The position numbers were made by a program, and so were the translations under genes. Positions 7,601-46,309 of a DNA stretch of 64,000 nucleotides are shown piece by piece. Position 1 is the stretch's first letter. Each line of letters opens with the position of its first letter. The DNA comes from Cyanobacteriota bacterium (GTDB lineage: Bacteria > Cyanobacteriota > Cyanobacteriia > Cyanobacteriales > Microcoleaceae), in contig JAXHVR010000009.1 of the NCBI GenBank assembly GCA_034189005.1, positions 11,413 to 75,412 on the forward strand. Reading direction: 5' to 3'. The notes under the pieces were generated by a model. The model had not been told where the DNA came from. It made no database searches and saw nothing but the letters and a program-made list of their open reading frames with translations.

Positions 7601-10600
7601 GGAGTTGTTGCAGCTTGGGGCTGCGGTTCGCAAGCGCGCCGCTGAGAGGAAACAGCGTTTGGGGCGGATCGTACCTTTGCCCTGGGAGTTGCCCCGCGTC
7701 GCCCGCCGGGTTATCGAGATGTATCGGGAACAAAAAAGTTTTGGGGAGTTGTCGCCGCCGGCTGGTTTTCTGATGCCGGTGTCGGTGGAACCTTACGAAG
7801 CTTGGTTGGAGGTGAATAAATGGGGCGATCGCGCTTTCGATCGTCTGACATCTCGCTTGGAAGGGGCGGCGGCGGATAGTTTGCCGAAAATTTCCGTGGT
7901 GATGCCGGTTTATAACCCGCCAGTGGAGTTTTTACGGGAGGCGATCGCCAGCGTAACCAACCAAGTTTACCAAAACTGGGAACTCTGCATCGCCGACGAC
8001 TGCAGTACCGACCCGGAAATTCGCCAAATTTTAAGCGAGTTGGCAGCGGACGATCCAGCCGACGACGACCGTAGAACAGGCGTCTCGCCTGTTCCAGCAG
8101 AAAGCGACGACCGTAGAACAGGCGTCTCGCCTGTTCCAGCAGACCCTCGCATCAAAATAAAATTTCGCGAAGAAAACGGCAACATCAGCGCCGCGACCAA
8201 CACCGCCGCCTCTCTGGCGACGGGAGACTTTATTCTATTCCTAGACAACGACGACGAACTAACTCCCGACGCCCTAGCAGAAGTCGCCCTCTATCTGGCA
8301 GAACATCCAGAAACCGACTTCCTCTATTCCGACGACGACAAGATCGATACGGAAGGCGATCGCTTCGACCCTCAATTCAAACCCGAATGGTCTCCAGAGT
8401 TGCTTCTATCCTTCATGTACATGGGGCATCTCTGCGCGGTTCGCCGAGAAATCTTTGAAAAAGTCGGAGGTTTGCGAGTCGGTTACGAAGGTTCCCAAGA
8501 CTACGACTTCGCCCTCCGGGCAACGGAAGTTTCCCGCAAAGTTGCCCATTTACCGTTAATCTTGTACCACTGGCGAACCGCCCCCGGTTCCACTGCCGTT
8601 TCCGGCGGCGAAAAACCTGCCAGTTTTGCAGCGGGGCGGCAGGCGGTACAAGATGCCTTGGATCGTCGCGGGGTTTCGGGGAAAGTAGATCGACCGGACT
8701 GGGCGATCGCTGAGAATTTGGGAATTTTTGCCCCGGAGTTTCCCCAGACCGGCCCTTCGGTGACGATTATTATTCCTACTAAAAATCAACTCCATTTTAT
8801 CAAGGGTTGTCTGGAGTCTCTGGAGAAGACTTCTTATCAGAATTATCGGGTTTTTGTCATCGATAATGAAAGCGACGATCCGAAAACTTTGGAGTATTTG
8901 GAAGGTGTTGGAGGATCCCCCCCTGCCCCCCTTGAAAAGGGGGGAGAAAGAAAGGTTGGAAAAGCGGGAGAAGTACGGGTTTTAAAAATACCTAATGAGG
9001 GGGGGAAATTTAATTTTGCCGCCATTAATAACCGCGCTGTCGAACAAGCAGAAACAGATTATATTCTATTTCTTAATAACGACACGGAAATTATTACCGA
9101 AAATTGGTTGAGTCAGATGGTTGGTTACGCCCAACTCCCCGGAGTCGGTGCCGTTGGGGCGAAGCTGATTTATCCAGACGGACGGATCCAACACGCGGGA
9201 ATAATTCACGGTTTGCATCACGGTCTGGCGGGTCATGCTTTTAAGTTAATGCCTTCGGAAAATCGCGGTTATTTGTCTCAAGCTGCGGTAGGGAGAAATT
9301 ATTCGGCGGTGACTGCTGCTTGTATGTTAACTCATAGGGAATTGTTTTTAGAAATGGGCGGTTTTGACGAGGAGAAATTCGCCGTTGCTTATAACGATGC
9401 GGACTACGGTTATCGACTTTTAGAAAAAGGTTATCGTTCGGTTTATTGCCCCGAAGCGGAGTTAATTCATCGGGAAGGAACCAGTCGCGGTTTTGTGGAT
9501 AATCCCCGGGAGGAAGCAATTTTTCGCCGCCGCTATGCCGAGATGGTAGATAAGTTTTATAGTCCCCATTTCTCTCTGGCAAATGAGTTATTCGAGGTTC
9601 AACCTCGGCGCTATTTTCTATCCCCCCCAACTCCCCTTGGAAAAGAGGAAGACCGTAGAACAGGCATCTTGCCTGTTGATGATGCGGAACAAGAAACCCG
9701 GTTTTTTGGAAAAACCGGGTTTCTGGGGGGGAGGAAAATTACATTATTAATGTGCAGTAATTCTTTAGATTTTACTGGGGCGCCTTTACATCAATACGAA
9801 ATTGCAGTTCAACTAGCTTCTGAAGGAATAGTTAAACCCATAATATTTTCTCCCACGGAAGGTCCGTTGCGTAAGGTTTACGAGGAGAAAAATATTGAAG
9901 TAATAGTGTTAGATAATCCCCTGGAACATATTTATCAACGGGATGATTACGATGCCGCATTGGAAAGCTTTGCTAAAGAAATAGAAGGGCTAAATGCTGA
10001 CGTAATTTATGCTAATACTTTAGAGAACTTTTTCCTAATAGATATTGCCCAGATGCTAAATATTCCTAGCGTTTGGAACGTTCACGAAAGCGAACCTTGG
10101 CAAACTTATTTTAATCGCTTCGGACCGGAAATAGCGACTCGCGCTTTGGAATGTTTCCGCTATCCTTATCGGATTATTTTTGTGGCGGATGCGACGCGGG
10201 ATAAATATTTACCTCTCAACAGTCACCATAATTTTACGGCAATTCATAACGGTTTGGATTTGGAATTGTTGAAAAGTTCGGCTAAGAAATGGTCTCCAGA
10301 GGAGGCGAGGGCGGCTTTGGGAGTTAATTCCGATGAGATTGTTTTGTTAATTTTGGGGACGGTTTGCGAAAGAAAAGGTCAAGAAGATTTGGTTAAAGCA
10401 ATACCTTATATTGGGGCGGAATGGGTAGGTAAAATTAAGTGTTTTATTGTAGGCGATCGCCCCAGTTTATATAGCAGTCAATTATCTGCTTTGGTGGCGG
10501 GTTTACCAGAGGAGTTAAAAGGGCGCATAGAAATAGTTCCAGAAACTCCCGATACTGCCAAATATTATCAAGCAGCAGATATCTTCGTTTGTACTTCGCG

Positions 10601-10895
10601 AATAGAAAGTTATCCCCGAGTAATCTTAGAGGCAATGGCTTATAATTTGCCAATAGTTACGACTCCAGTTTTCGGCATTGTGGAACAAGTGAAACCGGGA
10701 ATTAACGGTTTGTTTTATACCCCAAACCAACCCGAAGAATTAGCCTCGCAGTTGATGATTTTATTGGAGGATGAAGAGTTAAGGTTGCGACTGGGAGATA
10801 ATGCGAAATATGTGTTGGATGCGTTGAATACTTTTGAAGAAATGACCGCAGCTTACAGTCAGATATTTTGCGAAGCGTATTTGAGTCGTTCGTAA
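4662..10895 (+). CDS. 2077-aa multidomain glycan assembly protein: sulfotransferase, ~430-aa coiled coil, 2x beta-module, GT2, GT2, GT4
   Basis: PAPS-type motifs GMHRSGTS and FRSPWEVVDSLYRR. 28-aa/7-aa repeats span nt ~5520-6810. GT2 signatures are VVMPVYNP..DDCSTD..LDNDDE and IIIPTKN..IDNESDD..LNNDTE. The C-terminal GT4-like part reads FVCTSRIESYPRVILEAMAYNLPIV. Confidence 0.85.
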   Translation: MNAKNSNSKNHKAFLISGMHRSGTSLTASLLQKAGINIGKKLVGPEYGNIKGHFENIDFVKYHQEILRSQNIDDLGSNLLDEQEIVIGEKEKKRGRQLIKKHQKGKDLWGWKDPRTTLFLDLWLELLPYANFIFIFRSPWEVVDSLYRRSTDENLVESPEVAVKMWQLYNRRILKFNQNLPDRCLIANVDKVGKNPEGFIKAINDKFNLNLTAPSEENFDESLLIKNIENTHRPWLIEKNYPQTLEIYRQLKAAAIEIEPADDGEEKISAPTSENWAFRDWFDVRSLEKQAQILELEALQLHKDVEDWHKLFEEAQERAIALEAALGETELKLDGKELKLQESSEKLEGLEAELGEAQTQLDGTKVKLLESQTKVATLERKLGQTQAQLDGTQVKLIDSQKKVLGLETDLGQTQARLEGSETRFQESLTKLVGLETKLGQTEVQLEGTKTKLHQSQKLLLGLETELGHAQIQLNTTQLKLEESQKKIQGLEKELGDTQLRLDGSQAQIKESQAKIGELEGELGETQQRLDGSQAQIKESQAKIGELEGELGQTQQRLDGSQGQIKESQAKIGELEGELGETQLRLDGSQNQLKQSQSKIGELEGELGQTQQRLNGTQVKLDESQGKIQVLETELGQTQQQLQGTQAQLGQTQAELTQTQTALGQTQSALSQTQTLLGETQTVLVQTEVTLGQTQAELIAQRQETQELREEILAMRSSKFWKLREKWFNFKRRLRGLRYCIRKASPTRFVFSLDTPTSWEISSPQLEVVGWCFAQGANLFNNNNGNLEVDAIRARIADRTFDGSYGIERLDVAQKHDHTPAAQNSGFQIQLELPPGRHQLVLEAKDRKDKWHSIASYPIIVSTVQANFDAPATFEQREGMVLFAGWCCHPEKKISKLTLRCGDVSIDCAYGLRRKDVAEAFPQWVGSLDSGFEATVELPPGEWPLILEATLDTGEIVGFQCQNSLKVRRYGVLDRAKDKRLELLQLGAAVRKRAAERKQRLGRIVPLPWELPRVARRVIEMYREQKSFGELSPPAGFLMPVSVEPYEAWLEVNKWGDRAFDRLTSRLEGAAADSLPKISVVMPVYNPPVEFLREAIASVTNQVYQNWELCIADDCSTDPEIRQILSELAADDPADDDRRTGVSPVPAESDDRRTGVSPVPADPRIKIKFREENGNISAATNTAASLATGDFILFLDNDDELTPDALAEVALYLAEHPETDFLYSDDDKIDTEGDRFDPQFKPEWSPELLLSFMYMGHLCAVRREIFEKVGGLRVGYEGSQDYDFALRATEVSRKVAHLPLILYHWRTAPGSTAVSGGEKPASFAAGRQAVQDALDRRGVSGKVDRPDWAIAENLGIFAPEFPQTGPSVTIIIPTKNQLHFIKGCLESLEKTSYQNYRVFVIDNESDDPKTLEYLEGVGGSPPAPLEKGGERKVGKAGEVRVLKIPNEGGKFNFAAINNRAVEQAETDYILFLNNDTEIITENWLSQMVGYAQLPGVGAVGAKLIYPDGRIQHAGIIHGLHHGLAGHAFKLMPSENRGYLSQAAVGRNYSAVTAACMLTHRELFLEMGGFDEEKFAVAYNDADYGYRLLEKGYRSVYCPEAELIHREGTSRGFVDNPREEAIFRRRYAEMVDKFYSPHFSLANELFEVQPRRYFLSPPTPLGKEEDRRTGILPVDDAEQETRFFGKTGFLGGRKITLLMCSNSLDFTGAPLHQYEIAVQLASEGIVKPIIFSPTEGPLRKVYEEKNIEVIVLDNPLEHIYQRDDYDAALESFAKEIEGLNADVIYANTLENFFLIDIAQMLNIPSVWNVHESEPWQTYFNRFGPEIATRALECFRYPYRIIFVADATRDKYLPLNSHHNFTAIHNGLDLELLKSSAKKWSPEEARAALGVNSDEIVLLILGTVCERKGQEDLVKAIPYIGAEWVGKIKCFIVGDRPSLYSSQLSALVAGLPEELKGRIEIVPETPDTAKYYQAADIFVCTSRIESYPRVILEAMAYNLPIVTTPVFGIVEQVKPGINGLFYTPNQPEELASQLMILLEDEELRLRLGDNAKYVLDALNTFEEMTAAYSQIFCEAYLSRS
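6158..6577 (+). repeat. five near-identical 84-bp (28-aa) tandem units inside the coiled-coil region
   Basis: GCGACTGGATGG recurs at 6158, 6242, 6326, 6410 and 6494, exactly 84 nt apart. The unit encodes LEGELGETQQRLDGSQAQIKESQAKIGE. Confidence 0.95.
6563..6752 (+). repeat. nine 21-bp (heptad) tandem units, consensus LGQTQxx
   Basis: CAAAC(T/C)CA(A/G)-type units every 21 nt; peptide LGQTQAE LTQTQTA LGQTQSA LSQTQTL LGETQTV. Confidence 0.9.
8064..8142 (+). repeat. two in-frame tandem copies (42-nt period) of the GTAGAACAGGCGTCTCGCCTGTT palindromic element inside a GT2 domain
   Basis: GACGACCGTAGAACAGGCGTCTCGCCTGTTCCAGCAG occurs at 8064 and 8106 and encodes DDRRTGVSPVPAES twice. Confidence 0.95.
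9654..9723 (+). repeat. in-frame GTAGAACAGGCATCTTGCCTGTT element plus AGAAACCCGG/CCGGGTTTCT hairpin in the GT2-GT4 linker
   Basis: Encodes RRTGILPV...ETRFFGKTGFL. Both elements also occur intergenically in the window. Confidence 0.95.
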
Positions 10896-10912
10896 TATTA
10901 AAGCAAGCAAAT

Positions 10913-11176: not shown

Positions 11177-11450
11177 CTTGGAAACACCAGAGATCTCAGA
11201 AACCGGGTTTCTCAATTAACTTCTCGCTTGAGAGGCAAAAGTTATGCGAGAAACCCGGTTTCTTGTGAGTTAAAAAACATCTTTTGCAACGTCCATCTAA
11301 CCATAGGTGGGGGAACTGCATTGCCGTAAAGAATATAGCGATAACGATCGCTCTCTTCCTCTTAGGTCGCGCTTCGCTTCTTCTTTGTATTCTACCATAC
11401 AGAAAAATTACCAAATGTTTGATAATTGTCTATGGTAAAAGGAGAGAAAA

Positions 11451-13574: not shown

Positions 13575-13580
13575 ATTGTT

Positions 13581-15017: not shown

Positions 15018-15043
15018 TAATTAATAATTAATAATTAATAATT
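15008..15043. repeat. heptamer array (TAATAAT) containing the MscS-cNMP stop
   Basis: Period-7 repeat. Confidence 0.9.
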
Positions 15044-15054
15044 GTCCCAATTAT

Positions 15055-15141
15055 GATTATGAAAAATTAGGGGGCCAGAAACCCGGTTTCTCAAAGAAAC
15101 CGGGTTTCTAAAATATCGCGAACGATCTACGGCTTGCTATA
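15055..15141. mobile_element. TATAGCAA-family element, 5'-truncated copy
   Basis: GATTATGAAAAATTAGGGGGCCAGAAACCCGGTTTCTCAAAGAAACCGGGTTTCT...CGGCTTGCTATA. Confidence 0.8.
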
Positions 15142-15219
15142 GTTTGAAAAAACCCGGTTTCTGTTCCACGCCCAGATCTCCCGTTTCACTTTCAAAGATG
15201 CATCCAGGAGGACAGCCTA

Positions 15220-16575: not shown

Positions 16576-17787
16576 ATGTTCAACCTCGACACTCCCCAAA
16601 CCAAGGAATTAAATTACTTAACCAAATTTGCCGGGTGGTATATTCCCGAGGAATCTATTCCAGTTGGGGGAGAAGTTAAACTACAAATTTATCTCAACGG
16701 CAAACCTCATGCAGCTTTATTGCATGGAGGCGATCGCCCCGACGTAGCCAAAGTTTTTCCCGACAAAAAAAACGCCGCAACTAGCGGTTTTTGGGGCGAA
16801 CTATTGCTGCCGGAAACTATTAAACCAGAATCAAATATAGAAATAGAAATAGTAGCAGAGGGCAACCCTACCAAATCTCTTTATAAAAATCAATTTAAAG
16901 TAATTGGTAAACCCAAAATATTCCCAGAAAGAGAGAGGATATTTAACCTCGAAGAAATGTTGAAATGTCCGAGTTGCGACAATCGAATTAAGAAACCGGG
17001 TTTATTTGAAAAACCCGGTTTCTGGAACCGAGATTCACTCACCAACAGGCAAGATGCCTGTTCTACGAATTCCTGCCAGCAAACAAATTGCCCCATCTGG
17101 AAAAGAGGCAATACCTTCCATTTTTTACAACCAGAAGAAGTACCCTTCACCAGACTAACAGAACCGCAAAACACCCATCCCTATTCCGAAAGCATTCTCA
17201 AAGTCTTAGAAAAAATCGGAGATAAAGGAATAGTATTAGACTTTGGTGCCGGCAACACCCAACCAGAATACCTAAAACCCAATATTTGCTATCTGGAAGT
17301 GCAGCAATATCCCTTCACAGATATCGTCTGTACCACTCCCAAACTACCCTTCGCAGACAACAGTTTTGATGGAGTCATAAGTCACGCAGTCTTCGAACAC
17401 ATTCCCAATCCTTTTATAACTGCAAAAGAACTTTTTAGAATTTTAAAACCTGGAGGATTAATATTTATCGACACCGCATTTTTACAACCATTTCACAGCG
17501 ACCCAAATCATTATTTCAACATGACAATTCAAGGCTTGCGGCAAATAATGTCGGACTTTGAAGAAATCAACAGCGGCATTTTAGAACATCATTATCCCTC
17601 TTATAGTTTAATGATGTTAATCAGAATAATTTGGCCCCATCTGGAACAAAAACAATGGAAAAATCGTTTGGCAGACTGGCACGCATTTTTAATCCAAGAA
17701 GGCGATAATCTCGATGAAATGTTAGGCGAAAAAGGCAGAGAAATCCTCGCAGCAGGCGTCTTTTTTGAAGGGCGAAAACCAATTTAG
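16576..17787 (+). CDS. GW/RPD beta-module fused to class I SAM methyltransferase (type 11)
   Basis: The N-terminus FAGWYIP...GDRPDVAKVFP...SGFWG matches the recurrent module. The C-terminus has VLDFGAGN..FDGVISHAVFEHIPNP..LKPGGLIFI. The linker contains in-frame palindromic repeats. Confidence 0.8.
   Translation: MFNLDTPQTKELNYLTKFAGWYIPEESIPVGGEVKLQIYLNGKPHAALLHGGDRPDVAKVFPDKKNAATSGFWGELLLPETIKPESNIEIEIVAEGNPTKSLYKNQFKVIGKPKIFPERERIFNLEEMLKCPSCDNRIKKPGLFEKPGFWNRDSLTNRQDACSTNSCQQTNCPIWKRGNTFHFLQPEEVPFTRLTEPQNTHPYSESILKVLEKIGDKGIVLDFGAGNTQPEYLKPNICYLEVQQYPFTDIVCTTPKLPFADNSFDGVISHAVFEHIPNPFITAKELFRILKPGGLIFIDTAFLQPFHSDPNHYFNMTIQGLRQIMSDFEEINSGILEHHYPSYSLMMLIRIIWPHLEQKQWKNRLADWHAFLIQEGDNLDEMLGEKGREILAAGVFFEGRKPI
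16991..17066 (+). repeat. in-frame AGAAACCGGG/CCCGGTTTCT hairpin plus AACAGGCAAGATGCCTGTTCTAC element in the module-MTase linker
   Basis: Encodes KKPGLFEKPGFW ... RQDACSTN. Confidence 0.95.
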
Positions 17788-24576: not shown

Positions 24577-24682
24577 TATAGCAATCCGCGCAGGGATTAT
24601 GAAAAATTAGGGGGCCAGAAACCCGGTTTCTTTGAGAAACCGGGTTTCTAAAATATCGAAGGGCGATCTACGGCTTGCTATA
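24577..24682. mobile_element. ~105-bp MITE-like element, TATAGCAA...TTGCTATA termini, central AGAAACCCGGTTTCT / AGAAACCGGGTTTCT hairpin
   Basis: Full-length copy. The same element is seen at 47779..47882 (inverted) and 59656..59954 (interrupted). Confidence 0.85.
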
Positions 24683-27436: not shown

Positions 27437-27525
27437 CTAGTAGTTTGCGTGCAGGGATTATGATAAGATTTGGAGCCAGAAACCCGGTTTAAGAAACCGG
27501 GTTTCTTAAATATCGCAAATGATTA
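27437..27525. mobile_element. diverged TATAGCAA-family element
   Basis: GTTTGCGTGCAGGGATTATGATAAGATTTGGAGCCAGAAACCCGGTTTAAGAAACCGGGTTTCTTAAATATCGCAAATGA. Confidence 0.65.
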
Positions 27526-28100: not shown

Positions 28101-31100
28101 ATGAATTGCAAAGTTTGTCAATCTCAATCTCTTCCATTTGCCAGCGCTAAAATTTTAAACAGCAAATACAATATCCAATATTTTCAATGTCAAAACTGCG
28201 GTTTTATTCAAACTGAAGAACCTTACTGGTTAGGTGATGCTTATGCAAAAGCGATCGCCCCCAGCGATGAAGGTTTAATCTTTAGAAATTTGATGCTGGC
28301 GCAAATTACTAACAACATAATTAGTAACTTTTTTAGTCCCGAAGATAATTTCATAGATTTCGGCGGCGGTTACGGTTTGTTTGTGCGTTTAATGCGAGAC
28401 ATCCGCTACAACTTTTTCTGGCAAGATAAATATTGTCAAAATCTTTTCGCCGAGGGTTTTGAAGCCAAAGGCATTAGCTCTTATCAATTACTAACTGCTT
28501 TTGAAGTATTCGAGCATTTAGTCAATCCTTTGGAAGAAATAAAAGAACTCTTAAAATATTCCCCAAATATCCTCTTCAGCACCGAAATTATTCCACCAAA
28601 TAACCCAAAACCCGACGAGTGGCACTACTACGCCCTCAACGAAGGTCAACACATTTCTTTATATAGCCTTCAATCCTTATCAGTCTTAGCAGAAAAATTG
28701 GGCTTGAATCTCTACACCAATAATTCATCCATCCACCTGCTGACAAAAAAGAAAATATCTCAAGAATCTTTTGCAAAACAGTCTGAATATAACGCAGCAA
28801 AACTGAGACAATATTTGTGGCGATCGCGAGATTATCTAAAAACATTTGAACTCCTCAAAGCTACCGATAAAAAAACAAACATTCCCCAAACTCACTCCTT
28901 CGTCAGCCGGGAATTAGGAGTCAACGTCGCCGGTTTTGTTAAAGGAGAATTAGGCATAGGAGAAGGAGTAAGAGCAACAATTAGAGCCATAGAAACTACA
29001 GGCATTCCTTATGTCATTAATAACATCATCAGCACCCCCCACCGCAACTCAGATATTACCTATCAAGACAAATTTTCCCACGAAAATCCTTACCCCATAA
29101 ATATCTTTCAAGTCAACGCCCACGAAGTCAACACCTTTATGAAAAGAGGGGCGATCGAAAAATACTTTCCAGGGCGATATAATATCGGTTTTTGGGCGTG
29201 GGAACTTACTAAATTTCCCCCAGAATGGATGTCGGCTTTTGCACCGTTTAACGAAATTTGGGCTTACAGCAACTACTGCGTGGAATCAATTGCAGCGGTC
29301 TCGCCGATACCGGTTATTAAAATGATGCCCAGTATTTCTTTGCCGATGCCTTCTCTGGTCCGAGAAGATTTAAAATTGCCGCCAGATAAATTTATCTTTC
29401 TATTTATATTCGACTTTTTCAGCCATCTGGAACGAAAAAATCCCATCGCTACTATTAAAGCCTTCAAACAAGCTTTTGGGGAGAGTAACCCGGACGTTTT
29501 GTTAGTGATTAAATGTTCTAACTCGCAAAAATTTCCTGCCGATAGAGCGAGATTAATTGAAGCGATCGCCAACAGCCCATCTATTAAATTAATAGACGGT
29601 TATTTATCCAAAGATAAAATTAACGCCCTGCTCTATCACTGCAACTGTTATGTATCCCTGCATCGCGCCGAAGGCTTTGGTTTAACTATGTCGGAAGCCA
29701 TGTTTTATGGCAAACCAGTAATTGCTACTGGTTATTCTTCTAATATAGAATTTATGAACGTCGGCAATAGCTTTTTAGTCGATTACGAGAAAGTAGAAAT
29801 ATCTGGAAATTACGGACCTTACAAACGAGGAGATATTTGGGCAGAGCCCGGCGTCGAACATTGCGCCAATTTAATGCAATATGTTTTTAATAATTATCAA
29901 AAAGCCCAACAAGTAGGGGCGAGGGCAGCCAGGGAATTAAAGACTTTATTAAGCCCGGAGGCGATCGGGGAAAAAATTAAAAACCGTTTGGAATATATTG
30001 CTAAATTAACAGATAATTTCAGCAGCTTACCTCAACCGGGTTTAATCGCGCCATCCGGTTTTTCGTTATCCCAGAAACCCGGTTTTTTGAAAAAACCGGG
30101 TTTCTCGAAGGCAAAAAACCAACAGCCCTTAGTCAGTCTTTGCATCCCGACTTTTAATGGAGAAGCTTTTATTAAAGAAGCCCTTATAAGCGCTACTTCT
30201 CAGACATATCCAAATTTAGAAATAATCGTTGCCGACGACAGTTCCACCGATAGAACCGTCGAGATAGTCAGAGAATTTCAGCGAGAAAATCCCGCCGCTG
30301 ACTTGCGAATTATTCTGCATCGAAATTATGGTTTAGTCGGTAATTTAAACTTTTGCATCTCCCAGGGGCGAGGTAAATATATTAAGTTTTTATTTCAGGA
30401 TGACTTGTTGGCATCGAACTGCGTCGAGGAAATGGTTGAACTAGCAGAAAGCGATCGAGAAATAGGTTTAGTATTTTCTCCCCGGCGAGTGTTTTTAGAA
30501 CCTGGGGCCGAGTCGAATCAAACTTGTATGGCAGCATATCGAGGCACTCAAGATTTACATAAAGATTGGTCGAATTTAAAAACAGTTCAGTGGGGGAAAG
30601 AATTATTAATAGATGCTAATTGGATGATAGGTCGGTTGAATAAAATTGGCGAACCGACAACGGTTTTAATTCGCAAAGAAGTTTTTGATAAAGTAGGAGT
30701 TTTCGATCCTAGCCTGACTCAACTTTTAGATGTGGATATGTGGTTGAGAATTATGGGGAATTTTAAAATTGCTTTTGCGAAGGAAACTTTATCGCAACTG
30801 CGGGTCCATCCCCGCCAGCAAACTCAACTCAATCTAACTTCTGGGAAAAATACTGAAGATTATCAGCGGTTTTATCAGAAATTATTAGAGGATTCGACTT
30901 ATAGCTTTTTGAATCGGGAGCTTAAAGAAAAAGTAAGACGAAAATTAGGTATTAAATATGAATTGAATCTCTCCCAAATTTCAACTTTGGTTAAAGAGTA
31001 TCAAAAATCTCTGAGGAACGATTCCGCATTAATTAATCTGCGACAAGCTCGCTTGGAACTTGCGAAGAGATTGGTGCAACTCCCAGCAGAAGAGTTGAAA

Positions 31101-32780
31101 AAAAGTTATGGGTTGGAACTTGGTAAAATACATCAAGCTTTGGCAAGTTGCGGTCTGAAAAACGAACCCATGACCGAGGAAGAAAACCGGTTTTTTGCTC
31201 CCATCGCCGAGGGCGTGGCTAAAGGTTGGAATTCCCCGAACGCCTTGCAATATTTTTTAGCTTTTATTCTTTATAAGTATGCTTATCAGTTGCCAGTTAA
31301 TTACCAAAGGGCTCCCATACCGAGATGGTTGTTTTCTGATTTTCTGAAATTGATTTTCGAGACTCCTCTGAGCTTTCAGCAAAAAGAAGAATTAGAAAGC
31401 TATTGTCAATACCTGCAAGGTCTCATTCATTATATGAGAAGCAATGCTTTTACTAATACTAACCCAGAAGTCAGACAGAGTTTAGCTGCTTTTATTAAAA
31501 ATAATGTCAATTTAACTGGTTTGTATCTGAGGGATTTACCGTTGGGAGATATCCAGAAGCAGTTAGCCGATATCTGGGAGTTTGCTTTGCAAAACGAGGG
31601 GCATCAACTCGATTATAATTTTTCTGCAAAAACAGACATTCGCTCTCCCATTCGCCTCGGTATTTTGTTGGATAAATTAGGCGCTAACGAGCAGACTTTT
31701 GCCATTATTCCTATTATTAAATATTTATACCGACAAAAATTCGATTTAGTGCTTTATAATTTACAGGTAGAAGATGATAGCCTGGCCGATTATTGTCAAA
31801 AATTGCCAATTAACATAGTCCAACTCCCAAAAACCTTGCTGCAACAAGCTCAGAGGATACGCAGAGACGACCTCGATCTTCTCTGGGTTGGTGCGGAGCC
31901 GACGGCTCGCGCTAACCCTATCGCTCAGTTGGCCCTACATCGCCTAGCAAGAGTCCAGCTAACAACTGCCACAGTTGCCCCAGATACCACGGGCATCCGC
32001 AATATGGACTATTTCATTTTGGGAGAGTTAACATTGCCACTCCCCCCAGGACCGGGAAGCCCTCAGCAGTATCGAGAAGAATTAAAAGTAATTGGGGGCA
32101 GCGGTTTTTGTTTTGAATATCCCGTACAGACACAGCCAGAAGTTAAGCCGACTCGTCAGAGTTGGGGGGCATCCGCCGATACGATCGTTTTCGCCTCCGG
32201 TGCGGCCAGATCGAAAATTGGCCCGGAATTGAAAGAAGCGTGGGTGAAGATTTTAGGGGCAGTGCCGAACTCCGTATTGGTGTTGTATCCCTTTGGGGAA
32301 GGAACTTTCGATTATGCTCTGATGGTTTTATTTAAGCAAATGCGATCGCTTTTGGCCCGTTCTGGGGTTGACAAAAGTAGGTTAGTTGTGATAAAAGGGT
32401 TAAAGTCTAGTGCAGATGCGAGGGAGTGTTTGAAGCTTGCCGATGTTTATTTGGACTCGTTTCCCTGGAGCGGGGCTGCATCTTTAGTAGAACCATTATC
32501 AGAGTCCGTCCCAACCGTCGTAAAGGAGGGAGCAACTCCTAGAGGACGACAAGGCGCGGCCATGCTGCGAGAATTGGGAGTTCCGGGATTAGTGGCAGAT
32601 AACGAAAATAATTATATAAAATTAAGTATAGAATTGGGTCGCAATCGAGAATTGCGCCAATGGTACGGGGGACAGATCGAGCATAAAATGGCTGCTAATC
32701 CACAGTGGTTAGATGGCGGCAGTTATGCTGCGAAGATGGGAACCCTTTTAGAAAAGCTCGTTAAAAGAGGAATTAAATGA
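28101..32780 (+). CDS. 1559-aa multidomain protein: Zn-ribbon SAM-MTase, GT4, GT2, GT41 (SPY/OGT C-terminal)-like domain
   Basis: CKVCQS..CQNCGF Zn-ribbon plus an MTase fold. The GT4-like part reads YVSLHRAEGFGLTMSEAMFYGKPVIATGYS. The GT2 part reads LCIPTFNG..ADDSSTD..FQDDL. The C-terminus DSFPWSGAASLVEPLSESVPTVV..GRQGAAML resembles OGT/SPINDLY catalytic lobes. Confidence 0.82.
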   Translation: MNCKVCQSQSLPFASAKILNSKYNIQYFQCQNCGFIQTEEPYWLGDAYAKAIAPSDEGLIFRNLMLAQITNNIISNFFSPEDNFIDFGGGYGLFVRLMRDIRYNFFWQDKYCQNLFAEGFEAKGISSYQLLTAFEVFEHLVNPLEEIKELLKYSPNILFSTEIIPPNNPKPDEWHYYALNEGQHISLYSLQSLSVLAEKLGLNLYTNNSSIHLLTKKKISQESFAKQSEYNAAKLRQYLWRSRDYLKTFELLKATDKKTNIPQTHSFVSRELGVNVAGFVKGELGIGEGVRATIRAIETTGIPYVINNIISTPHRNSDITYQDKFSHENPYPINIFQVNAHEVNTFMKRGAIEKYFPGRYNIGFWAWELTKFPPEWMSAFAPFNEIWAYSNYCVESIAAVSPIPVIKMMPSISLPMPSLVREDLKLPPDKFIFLFIFDFFSHLERKNPIATIKAFKQAFGESNPDVLLVIKCSNSQKFPADRARLIEAIANSPSIKLIDGYLSKDKINALLYHCNCYVSLHRAEGFGLTMSEAMFYGKPVIATGYSSNIEFMNVGNSFLVDYEKVEISGNYGPYKRGDIWAEPGVEHCANLMQYVFNNYQKAQQVGARAARELKTLLSPEAIGEKIKNRLEYIAKLTDNFSSLPQPGLIAPSGFSLSQKPGFLKKPGFSKAKNQQPLVSLCIPTFNGEAFIKEALISATSQTYPNLEIIVADDSSTDRTVEIVREFQRENPAADLRIILHRNYGLVGNLNFCISQGRGKYIKFLFQDDLLASNCVEEMVELAESDREIGLVFSPRRVFLEPGAESNQTCMAAYRGTQDLHKDWSNLKTVQWGKELLIDANWMIGRLNKIGEPTTVLIRKEVFDKVGVFDPSLTQLLDVDMWLRIMGNFKIAFAKETLSQLRVHPRQQTQLNLTSGKNTEDYQRFYQKLLEDSTYSFLNRELKEKVRRKLGIKYELNLSQISTLVKEYQKSLRNDSALINLRQARLELAKRLVQLPAEELKKSYGLELGKIHQALASCGLKNEPMTEEENRFFAPIAEGVAKGWNSPNALQYFLAFILYKYAYQLPVNYQRAPIPRWLFSDFLKLIFETPLSFQQKEELESYCQYLQGLIHYMRSNAFTNTNPEVRQSLAAFIKNNVNLTGLYLRDLPLGDIQKQLADIWEFALQNEGHQLDYNFSAKTDIRSPIRLGILLDKLGANEQTFAIIPIIKYLYRQKFDLVLYNLQVEDDSLADYCQKLPINIVQLPKTLLQQAQRIRRDDLDLLWVGAEPTARANPIAQLALHRLARVQLTTATVAPDTTGIRNMDYFILGELTLPLPPGPGSPQQYREELKVIGGSGFCFEYPVQTQPEVKPTRQSWGASADTIVFASGAARSKIGPELKEAWVKILGAVPNSVLVLYPFGEGTFDYALMVLFKQMRSLLARSGVDKSRLVVIKGLKSSADARECLKLADVYLDSFPWSGAASLVEPLSESVPTVVKEGATPRGRQGAAMLRELGVPGLVADNENNYIKLSIELGRNRELRQWYGGQIEHKMAANPQWLDGGSYAAKMGTLLEKLVKRGIK
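30073..30105 (+). repeat. in-frame AGAAACCCGG-loop-CCGGGTTTCT hairpin in the GT4-GT2 linker of the 1559-aa protein
   Basis: Encodes QKPGFLKKPGFS. Confidence 0.95.
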
Positions 32781-36890: not shown

Positions 36891-37049
36891 GTTGTTAGTT
36901 GTCAGTTGTTAGTTGTCAGTGGTTAGTTGTCGATAGAGGATTAACGATTGACAATTAACAATTAACAATTAAGCGGATAACAGGCGAGACGCCTGTTCTA
37001 CTAACAATTAACGATTAACAATTAACGATTAACTATATTAACAACTAAC
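36891..37049. repeat. composite: GTTAGTT-type array, CAATTAA/CGATTAA arrays and one AACAGGCGAGACGCCTGTTCTAC element
   Basis: Fills the whole ABC-HlyD intergenic spacer. Confidence 0.9.
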
Positions 37050-37059
37050 CAGAAAAAAT

Positions 37060-39430: not shown

Positions 39431-39567
39431 CACCTTGCATCCCAATTTTCCCGATGTTTTTTACCCCTGCCGTTTCTCCGGTGGGGGTATTTTTGTTGTA
39501 AACTATTGGCTATTAATTTAGCAACGGATGATGCTGGTGGATGTAACTATGGATGTTAGTTGTTAGT

Positions 39568-39664
39568 CGTAGATCGTTCGCGATATTGAAGACAAACCCG
39601 GTTTCTTTGAGAAACCGGGTTTCTGGCCTCCTAATTTTTCATAATCCCTGCACGGATTGCTATA
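39568..39664. mobile_element. TATAGCAA-family element, inverted, one end truncated
   Basis: CGTAGATCGTTCGCGATATT...GAAACCGGGTTTCTGGCCTCCTAATTTTTCATAATCCCTGCACGGATTGCTATA. Confidence 0.8.
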
Positions 39665-39745
39665 GTTGTTAGTCGTCAGTTAATTGGTTTTGCGCGGGCA
39701 ATTAGCAACTCCAAATTCTCAATTCCCAATTCCCGATTTTTAATA

Positions 39746-41518
39746 ATGCTTAAACATTTCCCCAGATTATCTGACAACAAAATACTTTTATTAATTCTCT
39801 ATATTCTCCCAGTTGCTCTACTTTTATGGTTCGTGGCTAGCTTTAGCGTTAACGTTCCTTTTTGGGACCAGTGGAGATTGGTAAATATGTTCGATAAAGT
39901 AGGCAGCGGCAATGCTAGTTTTTCGGACTTTTTTGAAGTTCACGGACACCACCGCATCTTTTTCCCAAAAATTATTATTACTGCCCTAGCTTTTGCTTCT
40001 GGATGGAATACTCAATACGAGATAATTTGCAGCGTTATTTTTGTGGTTATAACCTTTTGGTTCCTGTGCAAAATTGCCGCGAGTAAAACGCAAAATAAAG
40101 GCGATAATTTAATGCATATCGCCAATATTTTAACCTGTATGTTGCTGTTTTCTTTGGTTCAACATCAAAACTGGTTGTGGGGGTTTACGCTTTTTTGGTT
40201 TTTGACTAATTTATGTTTGGTAATGGCGGTGTTTTTTCTCTGTTGTAATGAGAAGCGATCCTGTGGGGGCGAACAGGGGAGGCACCTGTTCTACGCCGGT
40301 ACTTCCTGTTTTATCGGCAGCTTTACTTTAGCCCAAGGTTTGCTCGCTTGGCCGATTCTAATTCCAGCAGTTTTCTCTCTGGAAGGCAACTTCCGTCAAA
40401 AACTCAAAAGAGTTTTAATCTGGATGGGAATTTTTCTAGTTTCATGTTTCATCTATTCTCTTAATTACAACCCAATTCGCGAACCACAACCATTTTTATT
40501 TTTGGAACGACCTTTCGTAGTAATTAATTACTTTTTCACCGTTCTAAGTTTGCCTCTGGTGCGGGTTCCCATTCCTTCAATTATCGTCGGCTTTTTATTA
40601 TTCTCGTGTTTCCTATTTTTTTGTTTCTATTTTATAAGAATAAGAGGCAAGATGCTGGTTCTACATCCAGAGGCATTGCCTTGGTTGTCCGTAGGTTCCT
40701 TCGCCATCATCTCATCCCTTTCTATTACCGCAGGACGGGCCCAATACGGCGTAGAAAATGCAATTATTTCCTCCAGATATACCACGACATCGGTCTTATT
40801 AATCGTTGCTTTAATTCATTTATTGGCATTGTTTTGGCGTCAAAACTCTCTCTCGAATTCAATATTTACTATTGGTGCGGTCATTTTAACAGGTATTATC
40901 GCTGTAAACTCGATTTATGTTATTAACAGAATTAAAACAGAATTGCCTTATATGCAAGGTAGAAAAGAGTGCTTGGAAATTATTAATTATCTGGAAAAGT
41001 CTGAATTTATGCAAGAAGCGCCAGAGAGTTGTTTGGTATTATTAAACGGCAAAACTTGGTTGGTCAGAGAAGGGGCAGAAATTATGGATAAATTGGGATG
41101 GCGTGAATTTCCCGACGAGATGGAATTTGTTAGCACGCCAGAACGGGTTTATGGTTATTTGGATACGCCTCCAGATGGGTTGGGGGAAACAGGCAAGATG
41201 CCTGTTCTACGGAATGAGGCGGTAACTGTAACTGGATGGGCGACTATTCCAGAAAGGGAGGAAACGCCGAATTTAGTGTTATTATCTTCAGGGGAAAATC
41301 GAACTTTTTTTGCCAATGCTTATGTAGTATTAGACAGCCCCGATCTAGCTAAAACTTTAAAGTCAAAGGAATACAAAAAAGCGAGATGGCAAGCGGAGTT
41401 TTCGGGTAAAGATTTAGGAATGGGAGAGGGGGCGATCGCTGCTTGGGTATATAATGCCAAAGACAAGCAATTTGTTAAATTAAGCGACGAATTAAAAATA
41501 GAAGTTAAAAAGCCTTGA
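39746..41518 (+). CDS. polytopic membrane protein (GT-C-like?) with C-terminal GW/RPD-type beta-module
   Basis: About 12 hydrophobic segments and a soluble C-terminal ~120 aa (VTVTGWATIP...DSPDLAKTL). Same architecture as 44531..46309. Confidence 0.7.
   Translation: MLKHFPRLSDNKILLLILYILPVALLLWFVASFSVNVPFWDQWRLVNMFDKVGSGNASFSDFFEVHGHHRIFFPKIIITALAFASGWNTQYEIICSVIFVVITFWFLCKIAASKTQNKGDNLMHIANILTCMLLFSLVQHQNWLWGFTLFWFLTNLCLVMAVFFLCCNEKRSCGGEQGRHLFYAGTSCFIGSFTLAQGLLAWPILIPAVFSLEGNFRQKLKRVLIWMGIFLVSCFIYSLNYNPIREPQPFLFLERPFVVINYFFTVLSLPLVRVPIPSIIVGFLLFSCFLFFCFYFIRIRGKMLVLHPEALPWLSVGSFAIISSLSITAGRAQYGVENAIISSRYTTTSVLLIVALIHLLALFWRQNSLSNSIFTIGAVILTGIIAVNSIYVINRIKTELPYMQGRKECLEIINYLEKSEFMQEAPESCLVLLNGKTWLVREGAEIMDKLGWREFPDEMEFVSTPERVYGYLDTPPDGLGETGKMPVLRNEAVTVTGWATIPEREETPNLVLLSSGENRTFFANAYVVLDSPDLAKTLKSKEYKKARWQAEFSGKDLGMGEGAIAAWVYNAKDKQFVKLSDELKIEVKKP
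40271..40294 (+). repeat. in-frame GAACAGG..CCTGTTCTAC palindromic element (variant loop)
   Basis: GAACAGGGGAGGCACCTGTTCTAC inside CDS 39746..41518. Confidence 0.85.
41188..41210 (+). repeat. in-frame AACAGGCAAGATGCCTGTTCTAC element
   Basis: Identical 23-mer to 17044..17066 and 3357..3379. Encodes TGKMPVLR at the start of the C-terminal module. Confidence 0.95.
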
Positions 41519-43507: not shown

Positions 43508-44382
43508 AAATATTATTAACAGGACTGGACGGACAATTAGGCAAACAATTGCAATCTTTCCTCGCACCTTTGGGGGATTTAACTACTGTAGGACGGGCAA
43601 CTTTAGACTTAGCAAATGCTGAGGATATTTATAAAGCGATCGAGGAAGTTAAGCCGGAAATAATTGTTAATGCGGCAGCTTATACTGCGGTTGACAAATC
43701 GGAAAGCGAAGTGGAATTAGCCACGGCAGTTAACGGTACGGCCCCAGGGATTTTAGCCGCCGAAGCTGAAAGGTTGGGGGCGACTTTAATTCATGTTTCG
43801 ACGGATTATGTATTTGATGGAACTCGAAGCGTTCCTTATTTGGAAAGCGATCCTACTAATCCCCTCGGTGCTTATGGCGCTTCTAAGTTAAAAGGTGAAG
43901 AAGCAATTGAGAAGACCAATGCCAAGTATGTTATTATCAGAACTGCTTGGGTTTATGGTGCTTATGGCAAGGGAAATTTTGTCAAAACTATGCTGAGATT
44001 GGGGAAAGAAAGGGAGGAATTGCGAGTAGTTTACGACCAAGTTGGAACTCCGACTTGGACGGGAGATTTGGCAGGGGCAATTAGTCAATTAATACCCCGT
44101 TTGAGTGGAGATAATTTGGGGATTTATCATTATACCAATAGCGGGGCTATTAGTTGGTACGATTTCGCGATCGCCATTTTTGAAGAAGCAGAAAAACTCG
44201 GTTTTCCTCTTAAGATTAAACGAGTGGTTCCTATTACTACTGCCGAATATCCAACACCGGCAAAACGCCCTGCTTATTCAGTATTAAATTGCGCCAAAAT
44301 TTCCCAAGTTCTCGAAACTTATCCGCCCCACTGGCGGGAAGGTCTCCGACAAATGTTGAAGGAGTTGGCAGAGATTTCGTAG
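43504..44382 (+). CDS. rfbD: dTDP-4-dehydrorhamnose reductase
   Basis: MKILLTGLDGQLG Rossmann start, STDYVFDG, YGASKLKGE. ATGA overlap with rfbC. The stop TAG lies within a GTAGAACAGG repeat. Confidence 0.93.
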   Translation: MKILLTGLDGQLGKQLQSFLAPLGDLTTVGRATLDLANAEDIYKAIEEVKPEIIVNAAAYTAVDKSESEVELATAVNGTAPGILAAEAERLGATLIHVSTDYVFDGTRSVPYLESDPTNPLGAYGASKLKGEEAIEKTNAKYVIIRTAWVYGAYGKGNFVKTMLRLGKEREELRVVYDQVGTPTWTGDLAGAISQLIPRLSGDNLGIYHYTNSGAISWYDFAIAIFEEAEKLGFPLKIKRVVPITTAEYPTPAKRPAYSVLNCAKISQVLETYPPHWREGLRQMLKELAEIS

Positions 44383-44518
44383 AACAGGCGTCTCGCCTGT
44401 TATCCGTAGAACAGGCGTCTCGCCTGTTTCCGTAGAACAGGCGTCTCGCCTGTTTCCGTAGAACAGGCGTCTCGCCTGTTATCCGTTACCGCTGGAACAG
44501 GCGAGACGCCTGTTCTAC
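44378..44518. repeat. array of four direct copies plus one inverted copy of GTAGAACAGGCGTCTCGCCTGTT
   Basis: 27-29-nt period with no unique spacers. The first copy contains the rfbD stop codon. Confidence 0.92.
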
Positions 44519-44530: not shown

Positions 44531-46309
44531 ATGTTAATGAAAGAAAAGCTAAATTGGGGATTTATTATCCCAACAATTATCGGATTTTTACTACCAGCAA
44601 TCTACGTTTTATATCTGATATCGCAAGCGGGGCATCTGCTCAATTTCGACTATTGGTGGATGATAAAAAATATCTACTCAATAGATGGCTTTTCGACAAA
44701 TCCTTTCGACTGGATGTTTCGCGCCAACGAACATTTTGTCCTAATTCCCGCTATTATTTACGCCCTCAATATTGTTATTACCAAAGGCTCAAATATTGGT
44801 CTGTGTTTGGCAACATTTTTATTAGCTGTAGTTCAAAGTGTTTTTTTAATTAAATTATTGCCAGAAAAGGTAACAGGGAATAGCAGGGTTCTGCGGTTAT
44901 TAATAATCTGTATTTCTCTATTTAACTTTACCCCCGCAGCCGCCCATAATTGGATGCGAGGTTATAGCGGCGTGCATTGGGTTATTGCTAATTTATTTGT
45001 TATTGCTTCTATTTATTGCCAGACAAAATTATTACAATCTAATCCTAACAAATGGGCAATTGCTAGCATCATCTTCGGCATTTTAGGCTGCATCAGTTAC
45101 AGCACTCCGCTAGCATTATGGCCGATATTATGTGCTGCTTCGCTTTTAATGCGGTTGCCAAGGCGGATTATTATTGCTTATTTTACCTGTACAATTTTAG
45201 TCGTAGGTACTTATTTTATTACCTACAAAACCCCCTCCCACCATCCATCTTTATCCCAAGTTAATCTTGTCGATACCCTCGCCTATATTCCTGTTTATTT
45301 AGGAGCAATTTTCAGTCATAATATTCCGGTTGCTTTAATAATTGGAACTTTCGGTTTAATTTTGGCGGCAGTTTTTCATCTTTATTGGTTATTATCAAAA
45401 CCGTTGAATAATATCGACTGGTTGCCGTGGTTGTCGATAATAATCTACAGTTTTGGAACGGCATTAATGGCAGCAATTAGTCGTTCTGGTTTTGGCATCG
45501 AACAAGCGATCGCCTCCCGTTACGCTACCCTCCCCGCCCTTTTTTGGTTGAGTCTAATCGTCTTAACAATTTTTAGGATAAACCAGACACAAATCTCCTC
45601 TATTTCCAAGGGGAAAATCTCAGAAACCCGGTTTTTTAAAAAAACCGGGTTTCTAGATCGGCTATTTAGAAAAAAGCAATATTTTCTAATACCAGTAGTC
45701 GCAGTGGTGACAGTTTTAACAATCTTAACCTACGGAGTCGGGGGCAAAACTGCGGAGGCGATCGCCCTAAGAGCAACCTATCAACCTTTAGTAGCATTAT
45801 CCGTACAACTTAATATCGCCGACCCCCTATTAATTCAGGAAAAAGTAGGCAACAGACCGGAAGCTTTTATTAGCTTATTAGATGCATTAAAAGCTCATAA
45901 TTTAGTGCCTTTTCATAAGAATATTAAAAATGATAATTTTTGCGTTCCATTAGGAATAAAAATTGATAGCAATCTATTAACAAACGAACCCCAAGAAAAC
46001 GTGCCCGGATATTTCGATCCCATAACCCAATATACCCCCGCAACAGCCAGAGTAAAAGGTTGGGTGGGGGAAAGCGACAAAATTAAATGTATTGCCATCC
46101 TCAACCAAGATAGAATAGTAAGAGGTTTTGGGATGTCTGGCTTTCCCCGCCCCGACGTAGCCGAAATTATGGGTTCCGAGTTTGAGTCATCGGGCTGGAA
46201 AGGATACATCGAAGCATCCCCAGACGATGTTTTAGCTGCCTACGTTTCCTTGAAAAACCGTCCCGGTTGGGTAGTATTGCGCGATAAGCGCAGTTTAATT
46301 AATAATTAA
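44531..46309 (+). CDS. polytopic membrane protein (GT-C-like?) with C-terminal GW/RPD beta-module
   Basis: About 12 hydrophobic segments. C-terminus reads ARVKGWVGE...FPRPDVAEIMG...SGWKG. An in-frame palindromic repeat encodes SETRFFKKTGFL. Ends ...LINN* in a heptamer array. Confidence 0.7.
   Translation: MLMKEKLNWGFIIPTIIGFLLPAIYVLYLISQAGHLLNFDYWWMIKNIYSIDGFSTNPFDWMFRANEHFVLIPAIIYALNIVITKGSNIGLCLATFLLAVVQSVFLIKLLPEKVTGNSRVLRLLIICISLFNFTPAAAHNWMRGYSGVHWVIANLFVIASIYCQTKLLQSNPNKWAIASIIFGILGCISYSTPLALWPILCAASLLMRLPRRIIIAYFTCTILVVGTYFITYKTPSHHPSLSQVNLVDTLAYIPVYLGAIFSHNIPVALIIGTFGLILAAVFHLYWLLSKPLNNIDWLPWLSIIIYSFGTALMAAISRSGFGIEQAIASRYATLPALFWLSLIVLTIFRINQTQISSISKGKISETRFFKKTGFLDRLFRKKQYFLIPVVAVVTVLTILTYGVGGKTAEAIALRATYQPLVALSVQLNIADPLLIQEKVGNRPEAFISLLDALKAHNLVPFHKNIKNDNFCVPLGIKIDSNLLTNEPQENVPGYFDPITQYTPATARVKGWVGESDKIKCIAILNQDRIVRGFGMSGFPRPDVAEIMGSEFESSGWKGYIEASPDDVLAAYVSLKNRPGWVVLRDKRSLINN
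45622..45654 (+). repeat. in-frame AGAAACCCGG-loop-CCGGGTTTCT hairpin in a loop of the membrane protein
   Basis: Encodes SETRFFKKTGFL. Confidence 0.95.

Follow-up and report, generated by a model that had tools for sequence, protein, structure and literature searches.

Palindromic repeats that lie in frame within long multidomain genes raise a question of order: did the repeats bring the domains together, or did they enter proteins that were already fused? We examined this question in 64,000 nucleotides of a Cyanobacteriota bacterium (Microcoleaceae; GenBank assembly GCA_034189005.1, contig JAXHVR010000009.1, positions 11,413 to 75,412), a stretch that we call the window and number from its first letter. 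The window holds three families of small hairpin repeats, designated A, B, and C here, and every copy within a gene is in frame (ten A/B sites plus family C, across five genes). A first-pass annotation had proposed that spacers between once-separate genes, colonized by such repeats, were read through and joined those genes into giant fusion proteins. The same fused architectures are present without these repeats in orthologues from Okeania, Trichodesmium, Dapis, Kamptonema, Microcoleus, Tychonema, and Limnospira, and at the corresponding spots the copy number in close relatives (79-93% identity) is 0, 1, 2, or 3. It is very likely that the in-gene copies are recent, polymorphic, in-frame insertions of hairpins resembling repetitive extragenic palindromic (REP) sequences into tolerant sites of long-fused proteins, and that the repeats did not create those proteins.

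In-frame hairpins in five genes

The five genes that contain repeats encode enzymes with glycosyltransferase (GT) or methyltransferase domains and two membrane proteins:
4662..10895, + strand: 2077 aa; sulfotransferase, coiled coil, GT2, GT2, and GT4 (Pfam)
16576..17787, + strand: 403 aa; N-domain, zinc ribbon, and methyltransferase
28101..32780, + strand: 1559 aa; methyltransferase, GT4, GT2, and GT41
39746..41518, + strand: 590 aa; polytopic membrane protein
44531..46309, + strand: 592 aa; polytopic membrane protein, distant paralogue of the 590-aa protein

Family A, AGAAACCCGGTTT-loop-AAACCGGGTTTCT, is a hairpin of 33 nt with a perfect 15-bp stem. It occupies 13 loci in the window, four of them within genes. 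The exact pattern AGAAACCCGG..CCGGGTTTCT is found seven times (9692, 15077, 24617, 27478, 30073, 45622, and 47810), and none is expected from shuffled sequence; the remaining copies are variant or split (11199/11250, 15149, 16992/17010, 39593, 56225/56277, and 59697/59907). Family B is a 24-nt REP with a GTAG tag and the pattern GTAGAACAGGC-NNNNN-GCCTGTT, present in 18 window copies, 6 in genes and 12 intergenic. Family C is a CCCCCC-TTGAAAA-GGGGGG hairpin. The in-gene copies are as follows (handles beginning with L or P denote related sequences):
8063..8147, + strand: B twice, in identical 42-nt tandem units (DDRRTGVSPVPAES twice), with copies at 8071 and 8113; alpha2-beta3 loop of the first GT2 (GT-A) domain, 2077-aa protein
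8917..8944, + strand: C (CCCCCCCTGCCCCCC-TTGAAAA-GGGGGG), in frame as SPPAPLEKGG; alpha2-beta3 loop of the second GT2 domain, 2077-aa protein; in P0003, not in distant orthologues
9622..9650, + strand: degenerate C-like segment, PPTPLGKEE; third repeat type of the GT2-GT4 linker
9653..9677, + strand: B, A-T subtype, in frame as DRRTGILPV; GT2-GT4 linker, 2077-aa protein
9692..9724, + strand: A, in frame as ETRFFGKTGFL; GT2-GT4 linker, 2077-aa protein; common to L002, not in L001
16992..17024, + strand: A with one stem mismatch, in frame as KKPGLFEKPGFW; CPSC..C..NCP zinc-ribbon loop, 403-aa methyltransferase
17044..17066, - strand: B, in frame as NRQDACST; zinc-ribbon loop, 403-aa protein
30073..30105, + strand: A, in frame as QKPGFLKKPGFS; GT4-GT2 linker, 1559-aa protein
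40271..40294, - strand: B, decayed, in frame as EQGRHLFY; loop or helix start, 590-aa membrane protein; intact in L050
41188..41210, - strand: B, in frame as ETGKMPVLR; C-terminal part of the 590-aa protein
45622..45654, + strand: A, in frame as SETRFFKKTGFL; membrane-helix loop of the 592-aa protein, in a 66-nt insertion at 45601-45666

The first-pass annotation had already described A as both intergenic and present in four coding sequences, and its four translations agree with ours; two of its copies are shifted here by one nucleotide (9692-9724, given as 9691-9723, and 16992-17024, given as 16991-17023). The B elements that it placed in frame near 8064, 8106, 9654, 17044, 40271, and 41188 are all present, with the tandem pair 100% identical and the copy at 40271 decayed, and its description of the GT2-GT4 linker as a concatenation of three repeat types also holds (C-like, B, and A at 9622-9724). 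The family C copy at 8917-8944 was not in its list.

Both A and B fold stably (z -5.6 to -6.8), and both are rarer within genes than expected from a coding fraction of 0.85. For A, 4 of 13 loci are in genes (P = 1.5e-5); for B, the figure is 6 of 18 copies (P = 9e-7).

The annotation had placed the in-gene repeats mostly at domain boundaries, which is true of about half of them. The other sites are the alpha2-beta3 loops of two GT-A domains, the zinc-ribbon loop, and membrane-helix loops: the tandem B pair at 8064/8106 is inside the GT2 catalytic domain, and the copies at 40271 and 45622 are in loops of membrane proteins. The property that the in-gene sites share is that each is a tolerant loop or linker. 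For engineering, repeat-bearing loops are of use as markers of insertion-tolerant positions in enzymes, GT-A glycosyltransferases among them. In-frame repeats also inflate protein length and split Pfam matches, and can mislead annotation, domain-boundary calls, and orthology. In the first GT2 domain, the B tandem directly follows the DDCSTD motif. When this domain is matched by profile to the solved chondroitin synthase GT-A structure (2z87), the match is interrupted at one residue, where the tandem lies, and 29 residues are left extra.

Orthologues and the age of the fusions

We compared the 2077-aa protein with its orthologues in a 13-protein alignment that covers six genera. GT2 and GT4 are fused in all 12 orthologues, and the other listed matches (119 of 119) are 1718-2565 aa long with the same GT2 and GT4-type Pfam families. 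The only repeats of this protein in an interdomain linker are those of the block at 9622-9724, and the corresponding linker of the orthologues is hypervariable and contains none of the window repeats, ranging from 3 residues (P0044) to approximately 700 residues of unrelated repeats (Okeania P0004). The DNA of the GT2-1 loop has B twice in the window, once in L001 (84% identity), and not at all in L002 (79%) or other orthologues. The GT2-GT4 linker holds B and A in the window and in L002, and ATTCCCC heptamers in L001.

In Okeania and related genera, equivalent linkers reach lengths of hundreds of residues through tandem repeats of other kinds (QINNPSVEANSPN..., SDKTEFLQQQE...). We observed this in P0004 and P0006 (Okeania) at the place corresponding to window aa 1655-1690, and in P0135, P0127, and P0128 at aa 250-270 of the open reading frame (ORF) that starts at 28101. 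Because other repeat types expand equivalent linkers in these genera, these interdomain linkers are general sinks for repeats.

The 1559-aa protein gives a similar picture. GT4 and GT2 are fused in 17 of 17 aligned orthologues (18-protein alignment), P0121 (92% identical) and P0125 lack the A peptide, and P0122-P0124 have it in one to three copies. At the DNA level, the window and L049 supply filled and empty alleles of this protein. The protein also supplies the sole true architecture polymorphism that we found, in that its N-terminal methyltransferase (28101-28900 in the window) is missing in Microcoleus and in O. nigro-viridis PCC 7112, whose proteins begin MNxNxGxNIxGY. The methyltransferase-GT4 junction has no repeats in the window, and the syntenic spacer of PCC 7112 (L166:3600-4060) contains neither a split methyltransferase gene nor a remnant of one.

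The zinc-ribbon-like motif of the 403-aa protein, CPxC..CxxC, has two cysteine pairs with A and B between them, and the motif separates the N-terminal domain from the methyltransferase. The L002 orthologue contains A, in a CCAGG/CCTGG variant, and lacks the 16 residues of B. More distant homologues (34-43% identity) mostly have the same layout of N-domain, CxxC..CxxC, and methyltransferase without A or B.

In the two membrane proteins the repeats fall in loops. For the 592-aa protein, the site of the 66-nt window insertion is empty in the closest relative (L048, 93%), in L050, and in several others, and P0247 has three copies. Alleles with and without A are interleaved on the tree of this protein, indicating repeated loss, repeated gain, or both. 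Relatives of the 590-aa protein came from a metagenome scan, which gave identities of 64% or lower, and from protein searches, which gave closer ones. At 40271, L050 has an intact B and the window a decayed one; at 41188, the copies of the window and L050 are intact, and that of L048 is decayed. Neither copy occurs in orthologues of 54-60% identity, and at 41188-41210 B encodes ETGKMPVLR where distant orthologues (L003-L006) have (V/T)T(G/A)KP(I/L)II.

Because the repeat-free orthologues are already fused, an outcome that had been named beforehand as refuting, the hypothesis that the repeats fused these proteins is refuted for the five genes. Some repeats do occupy the GT2-GT4, GT4-GT2, and N-domain/methyltransferase junctions, the linkers of orthologues in other genera are filled by other repeats, and one architecture polymorphism is genuine, and these points count in favor of spacer read-through. 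However, alleles free of repeats, which the annotation had suggested looking for, occur at the same junction or loop in the closest relatives (92-93% identity); half of the sites are inside domains or in membrane-protein loops; the polymorphic methyltransferase-GT4 junction is free of repeats, and no split gene was found in PCC 7112; and the arms of the intergenic carrier described below are missing from the coding copies. We consider read-through of repeat-colonized spacers highly improbable. The result does away with an appealing but mistaken account in which giant fusion proteins were glued together by repeats.

An assembly or sequencing artefact, with chimeric-read palindromes or mis-joined contigs giving false long ORFs, could in principle produce a similar appearance, since perfect palindromes are known to trouble assembly and the window is known from one assembly. 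We regard this as exceedingly improbable: the same in-frame copies are found at the same positions in independent ENA, JGI, NCBI, and Logan assemblies (L001, L002, L050, P0122-P0124, P0244, P0246, and P0247), and the ORFs align with their orthologues from end to end. The predicted peptides that span junctions of in-gene repeats include TGVSPVPAESDDR, TGILPVDDAEQETR, and ISETR/FFK.

Change, movement, and possible function of the in-gene copies

At the GT2-1 site, a G-C stem pair in the window (TGVSPV) corresponds to an A-T pair in L001 (TGILPV), so that both sides of the stem and two amino acids have changed. For the A copy in the methyltransferase, the window reads G..C and the orthologous L002 copy A..T, and in the linker A copy of L002 the variant CCAGG/CCTGG converts Gly to Trp. 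Among all 27 B copies (window and related loci), each of which begins GTAG followed by AACAGGC[G/A]-NNN-[C/T]GCCTGTT, the closing stem pair is G-C in 14, A-T in 12, and mixed in none. Tandem duplication of identical units changes the copy number.

In-gene A copies of some relatives (L002:14842, L002:16706, P0003, and P0247) have CCAGG/CCTGG in place of CCCGG/CCGGG on both arms, giving the Trp peptides ETWFL and KTWFL, and intergenic copies on the same contig are of the CCCGG type.

The intergenic copies in the window show what accompanies the hairpins outside genes:
24577..24682, + strand: complete carrier of about 106 bp with TATAGCAAKCCG terminal inverted repeats and A at its center
around 15038-15142, 27443-27520, 39560-39668 (- strand), and 47793-47880 (- strand): similar carriers
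11197..11264: two A half-sites, 36 nt apart
59695..59921: A split by an element of about 195 bp nested in its loop, the whole within a carrier element
44378..44518: array of five B elements, four direct and one inverted
61282..61442, + strand: array of five B elements with a 38-nt period

The ~195-bp element at 59695-59921 has inverted ends of its own (AACAATACCTTCGCC...GGCGAAGGTATTCTT) and sits exactly in the A loop, which gives three levels of nesting. At 56223-56291, the spacer between ylxR and infB contains two degenerate half-sites of A (AGAAACCGGGTTTAT ... AGAAGCCCGGTTTCG), approximately 150-200 nt upstream of the start of initiation factor 2. Further intergenic B copies are at 3377 and 37001, and B is embedded in heptamer arrays at 3290-3380 and 36950-37060. 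Family C adjoins A, in degenerate form, at 45589-45615, so that C stands beside A in two coding insertions (9622-9650 and 45589-45615). With the consensus GATCCCCCCCTNGCCCCCC-TTSAAAAG-GGGGG, C recurs in Scytonema and a related metagenome-assembled genome (L105:1893 and L075:1142 are the positions of the two matches). A gathering-threshold scan of the window with Rfam matched no family.

The first-pass annotation had named the elements exonised MITEs (miniature transposable elements with inverted repeats). The carrier does have terminal inverted repeats and folds as a long hairpin, as do the cyanobacterial MITEs that have been reviewed (Nezha, MaeMITE, and the Anabaena MITEs, with fusions of Anabaena ORFs with MITEs also noted; PMC3184786). 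The in-gene A copies differ: they are bare 33-nt hairpins of the TTTTTT/AAAAAA subtype, without the carrier arms. We compiled flank statistics for 138 A copies from the 115 loci listed in the genome scan described below. None of the 138 copies has a target-site duplication of 4 nt or more. The base pair immediately beyond the stem is depleted (12 of 138 copies, with approximately 35 expected), and a YYC foot is present on one side only. Neither a GTAG nor a CGTC tag was found at these copies, whose flank logos are YYC/GRR. The lack of target-site duplications, the depleted outer pair, and the one-sided foot favor a single-strand route that is specific for hairpins over a DDE-type MITE.

The anatomy of B is that of a GTAG-tagged REP. 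An unpaired GTAG foot at its 5' end adjoins a stem of 8 bp with a loop of 3 nt (fold, -7.7 to -10.1 kcal/mol; z about -6 to -7), which places GT[AG]G beside a short stem-loop, and its copies are many, mainly extragenic, clustered, and mostly downstream of genes. These features, together with the covarying closing pair and the mixture of direct and inverted clusters, are shared with the GTAG-REP systems of REP-associated tyrosine transposases (RAYTs), known as REPtrons or REPINs (PMC3733652, PMC6006769, PMC3116915). B probably moves by single-strand, hairpin-specific transposition of the REP/RAYT (Y1 HUH) type. A shares with these systems the anatomy of a one-sided foot without target-site duplication and differs in having no GTAG or CGTC and a perfect 15-bp stem; it probably moves by a similar route that leaves no target-site duplication. 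B was found solely in the window and its close relatives. In Tychonema bourrellyi (P0289, approximately aa 168), a member of the 592-aa family has the B-like peptide CGTGILPVQ in a different loop, which points to in-frame insertion of B, or of a close relative, in Tychonema as well.

We propose the following course of events. Three tiny, non-autonomous hairpin families have multiplied in this lineage, mainly in intergenic DNA; an occasional copy lands inside a gene, and selection purges nearly all such copies. The survivors are those that add whole codons and no stop at places where 8-22 added residues are harmless, such as hypervariable interdomain linkers, the GT-A alpha2-beta3 loop, the zinc-ribbon loop, and membrane-helix loops. 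Resident copies then undergo tandem duplication by slippage, decay, or are deleted, which accounts for the zero to three copies per spot among close relatives. The encoded peptides would be passengers, given that the copies evolve as nucleic-acid hairpins in which both stem sides change, and we infer that these peptides are neutral. Fusion of the multidomain proteins long predates the arrival of the repeats.

Several results sit uneasily with recent insertion of a selfish hairpin into tolerant sites. The net insert sizes between filled and empty alleles differ (39, 66, and approximately 27 nt), and at two sites the element appears to overwrite similar sequence (TGKPIII to TGKMPVL, and L049 compared with the window in the 1559-aa protein). 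Variable insert sizes and apparent overwriting indicate that the insertions are not clean additions of a fixed unit, or that frame-restoring indels followed; cut-and-paste of a fixed unit does not predict varying inserts and replacement. The Pfam scan of the 35 window ORFs found no RAYT or other transposase, including Y1_Tnp. Beside A, no gene family recurs in 357 ORFs within 500 bp of the 115 listed loci, where all-against-all clustering gave a largest cluster of five. The clusters near A are ABC ATPases, TPR, RTX, pentapeptide, and Uma2 proteins, and the ORFs between close pairs of A hairpins were nothing remarkable. A stem that is letter-identical in three phyla is unusual for a merely selfish REP, and the frame bias and the perfect stems of the coding copies could mean some function.

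The frame bias concerns the peptides of A. Gene copies use only the frames ETRF(F/L)xxTGFL and KPGFxxKPGF, and the third, frame 1 (RNPVSxRNRVS), is used at none of 12 gene sites (P about 0.008). The first-pass annotation had stated that only the two stop-free frames are used. The preference for two frames stands, but the third is also open in most loop variants, so the preference is not explained by stops. We read it as selection against a less tolerable peptide, which leaves some room for a functional reading.

In that functional reading, hairpins in ORFs would have been recruited as mRNA hairpins for ribosome pausing or as marks for RNase cleavage between domains, as flexible Pro-Gly-rich spacers, or as hot spots of length variation in surface-polysaccharide enzymes. 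In addition to the use of two of three open frames, it would fit the maintenance of stem complementarity even where amino acids change, the repeated insertion into the same loops with varying copy number, and the nature of the hosts, which are glycosyltransferases and membrane proteins of an O-antigen/exopolysaccharide (EPS) cluster. Nevertheless, even relatives that are 90% identical differ in whether they have a copy, copies have decayed (40271, and 41188 in L048), the elements are strongly depleted in coding DNA, unrelated proteins elsewhere are hosts (a STAND NTPase, DAO, a nonribosomal peptide synthetase [NRPS], and RTX), and gene conversion or hairpin-templated repair can maintain stems without function. 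Recruitment for a function is, in our judgment, unlikely.

Hairpin A in other genomes, known repeat systems, and the gene cluster

We scanned one genome per species for the exact A pattern and obtained at least 115 stretches (L051-L165), including matches in about 16 named cyanobacterial genera with GC contents of 33-57%. Among the matches listed, A is present in Nostocales (Scytonema, Rivularia, Calothrix, Stigonema, Iningainema, and Heteroscytonema) and Oscillatoriales (Microcoleus, Oscillatoria, Okeania, Phormidium, Aerosakkonema, Roseofilum, Hormoscilla, Limnoraphis, Microseira, and Limnofasciculus). At least 10 of the matches are in Chloroflexota and Planctomycetota, at gene boundaries and with flanks of 51-69% GC. 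The chance expectation for 26 fixed bases in the scanned collection was calculated as about 0.002 matches. In the matches listed, the stems (13-15 bp) are letter-identical between genomes, the loops vary, and the flanks are unrelated; in cyanobacteria, A is often at the center of differing longer palindromes. Example loci outside the window are L064, L065, L080, L081, L084, L108, L109, L140, L145, and L160. Elsewhere A also occurs inside genes, both in linkers and within the domains of an nSTAND1 NTPase, DAO, and NRPS adenylation. The exact pattern had no match in IMG/VR viral contigs, blastn of A against PLSDB plasmids gave no match, and a full-text literature search with the A half-site sequences returned unrelated primers and sites only.

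Contamination of metagenome-assembled genomes was considered as a source of the Chloroflexota and Planctomycetota matches and rejected, because A is embedded there in flanks of 58-69% GC.

Classical REPs are specific to a species or genus, whereas the A stem is identical across phyla, and the ordinary REP model does not explain this identity. One tentative possibility, which we hold with low confidence, is that A is a single 33-nt mobile hairpin with an invariant stem, spread horizontally by a dedicated hairpin-specific system not yet described, or that its stem is kept by a conserved host factor. A length of 11 codons and two benign frames would, if A is such a mobile hairpin, let it live in genes. 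If true, the identity across phyla would imply a mechanism that moves or maintains a 33-nt DNA hairpin.

The closest precedent in kind is the Rickettsia palindromic elements (RPEs), reportedly described by Ogata et al. in 2000. The first-pass annotation had drawn this comparison, and it extends to intragenic REPs: the window has palindromic repeats in frame in five genes whose ORFs are intact and colinear with their orthologues. RPEs, like the window repeats, are palindromic, occur both between genes and in frame in many unrelated genes, add a short peptide while sparing the protein, and vary in presence between close relatives. The RPE-1 type is 100-150 bp long, compared with 24-33 nt for the window units. 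RPE-4/6 are CGTC-tagged REPs (PMC3733652), and the tag of B is GTAG, A has neither tag, and the host is of a different phylum (a free-living filamentous cyanobacterium); judged by unit length and tag, the window repeats do not belong to the RPE-1 to RPE-8 families. Intragenic GTAG/CGTC REPs that encode 20-30 residues are also documented (PMC3733652), as are cyanobacterial RAYT subclasses with GT[AG]G REPs (PMC6006769). In kind, therefore, the phenomenon is already known from RPEs and intragenic REPs. What is new is the families, the host group, and an unusually clear series of filled, empty, and multicopy alleles. They document very small REP-like hairpins that live in frame in enzymes of a host other than Rickettsia or Proteobacteria.

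Two other systems invite comparison. Elhai et al. are said to have described in 2008 the small dispersed repeats (SDRs) of Nostocaceae, hairpins of 21-27 nt nested in heptamer arrays or other small elements, grouped in the sequence families SDR1-8, and reportedly regarded as mobile. Compared by description only, SDRs and B are both short dispersed hairpins of filamentous cyanobacteria that are nested in heptamer arrays. SDRs are reported in Nostocaceae only (PMC5861425), and the window belongs to Oscillatoriales/Microcoleaceae. PARCELs (PMC2996958) are likewise dyad-symmetric DNA that gives a similar peptide from both strands, with a patchy distribution across phyla. They are protein-domain repeats recognized by a peptide hidden Markov model, with variable DNA, whereas the window repeats have invariant DNA and an incidental peptide. 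We rejected identity with PARCELs because these are defined at the peptide level (PMC2996958).

The Pfam scan of the 35 window ORFs identified an O-antigen/EPS cluster of the ABC-transporter-dependent (Wzm/Wzt) type, with numerous methyl-, sulfo-, and glycosyltransferases and dTDP-rhamnose genes. The window also encodes an RTX protein with its own type I exporter, followed by rimP-nusA-infB. Its GC content is 42.6%, the cyanobacterial HIP1 octamer GCGATCGC occurs 60 times, and nearly all genes are flanked by heptamer tandem arrays. The nearest named genera of its proteins, at 52-62% identity, are Okeania, Trichodesmium, Dapis, Kamptonema, Microcoleus, and Tychonema, and metagenomic relatives reach 79-93%, which makes the source a sparsely sampled member of Microcoleaceae.

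Gene order varies between relatives. In the window, genes for an adenylate cyclase, a cNMP-gated MscS, and a phosphate-binding protein separate the 2077-aa gene from the 403-aa methyltransferase gene (11451-16293). L001 has the cyclase and MscS genes at the corresponding place, and its contig stops after the MscS gene; in L002, none of the three genes is at the corresponding place (L002:16072-16288). Two further in-frame repeats in the window have no relation to the hairpins: an 84-nt unit repeated 4.6 times in the coiled-coil part of the 2077-aa gene (6158-6542), and five copies of GAAGATGAAATA that encode EDEI repeats at the C-terminus of NusA (54960-55022).

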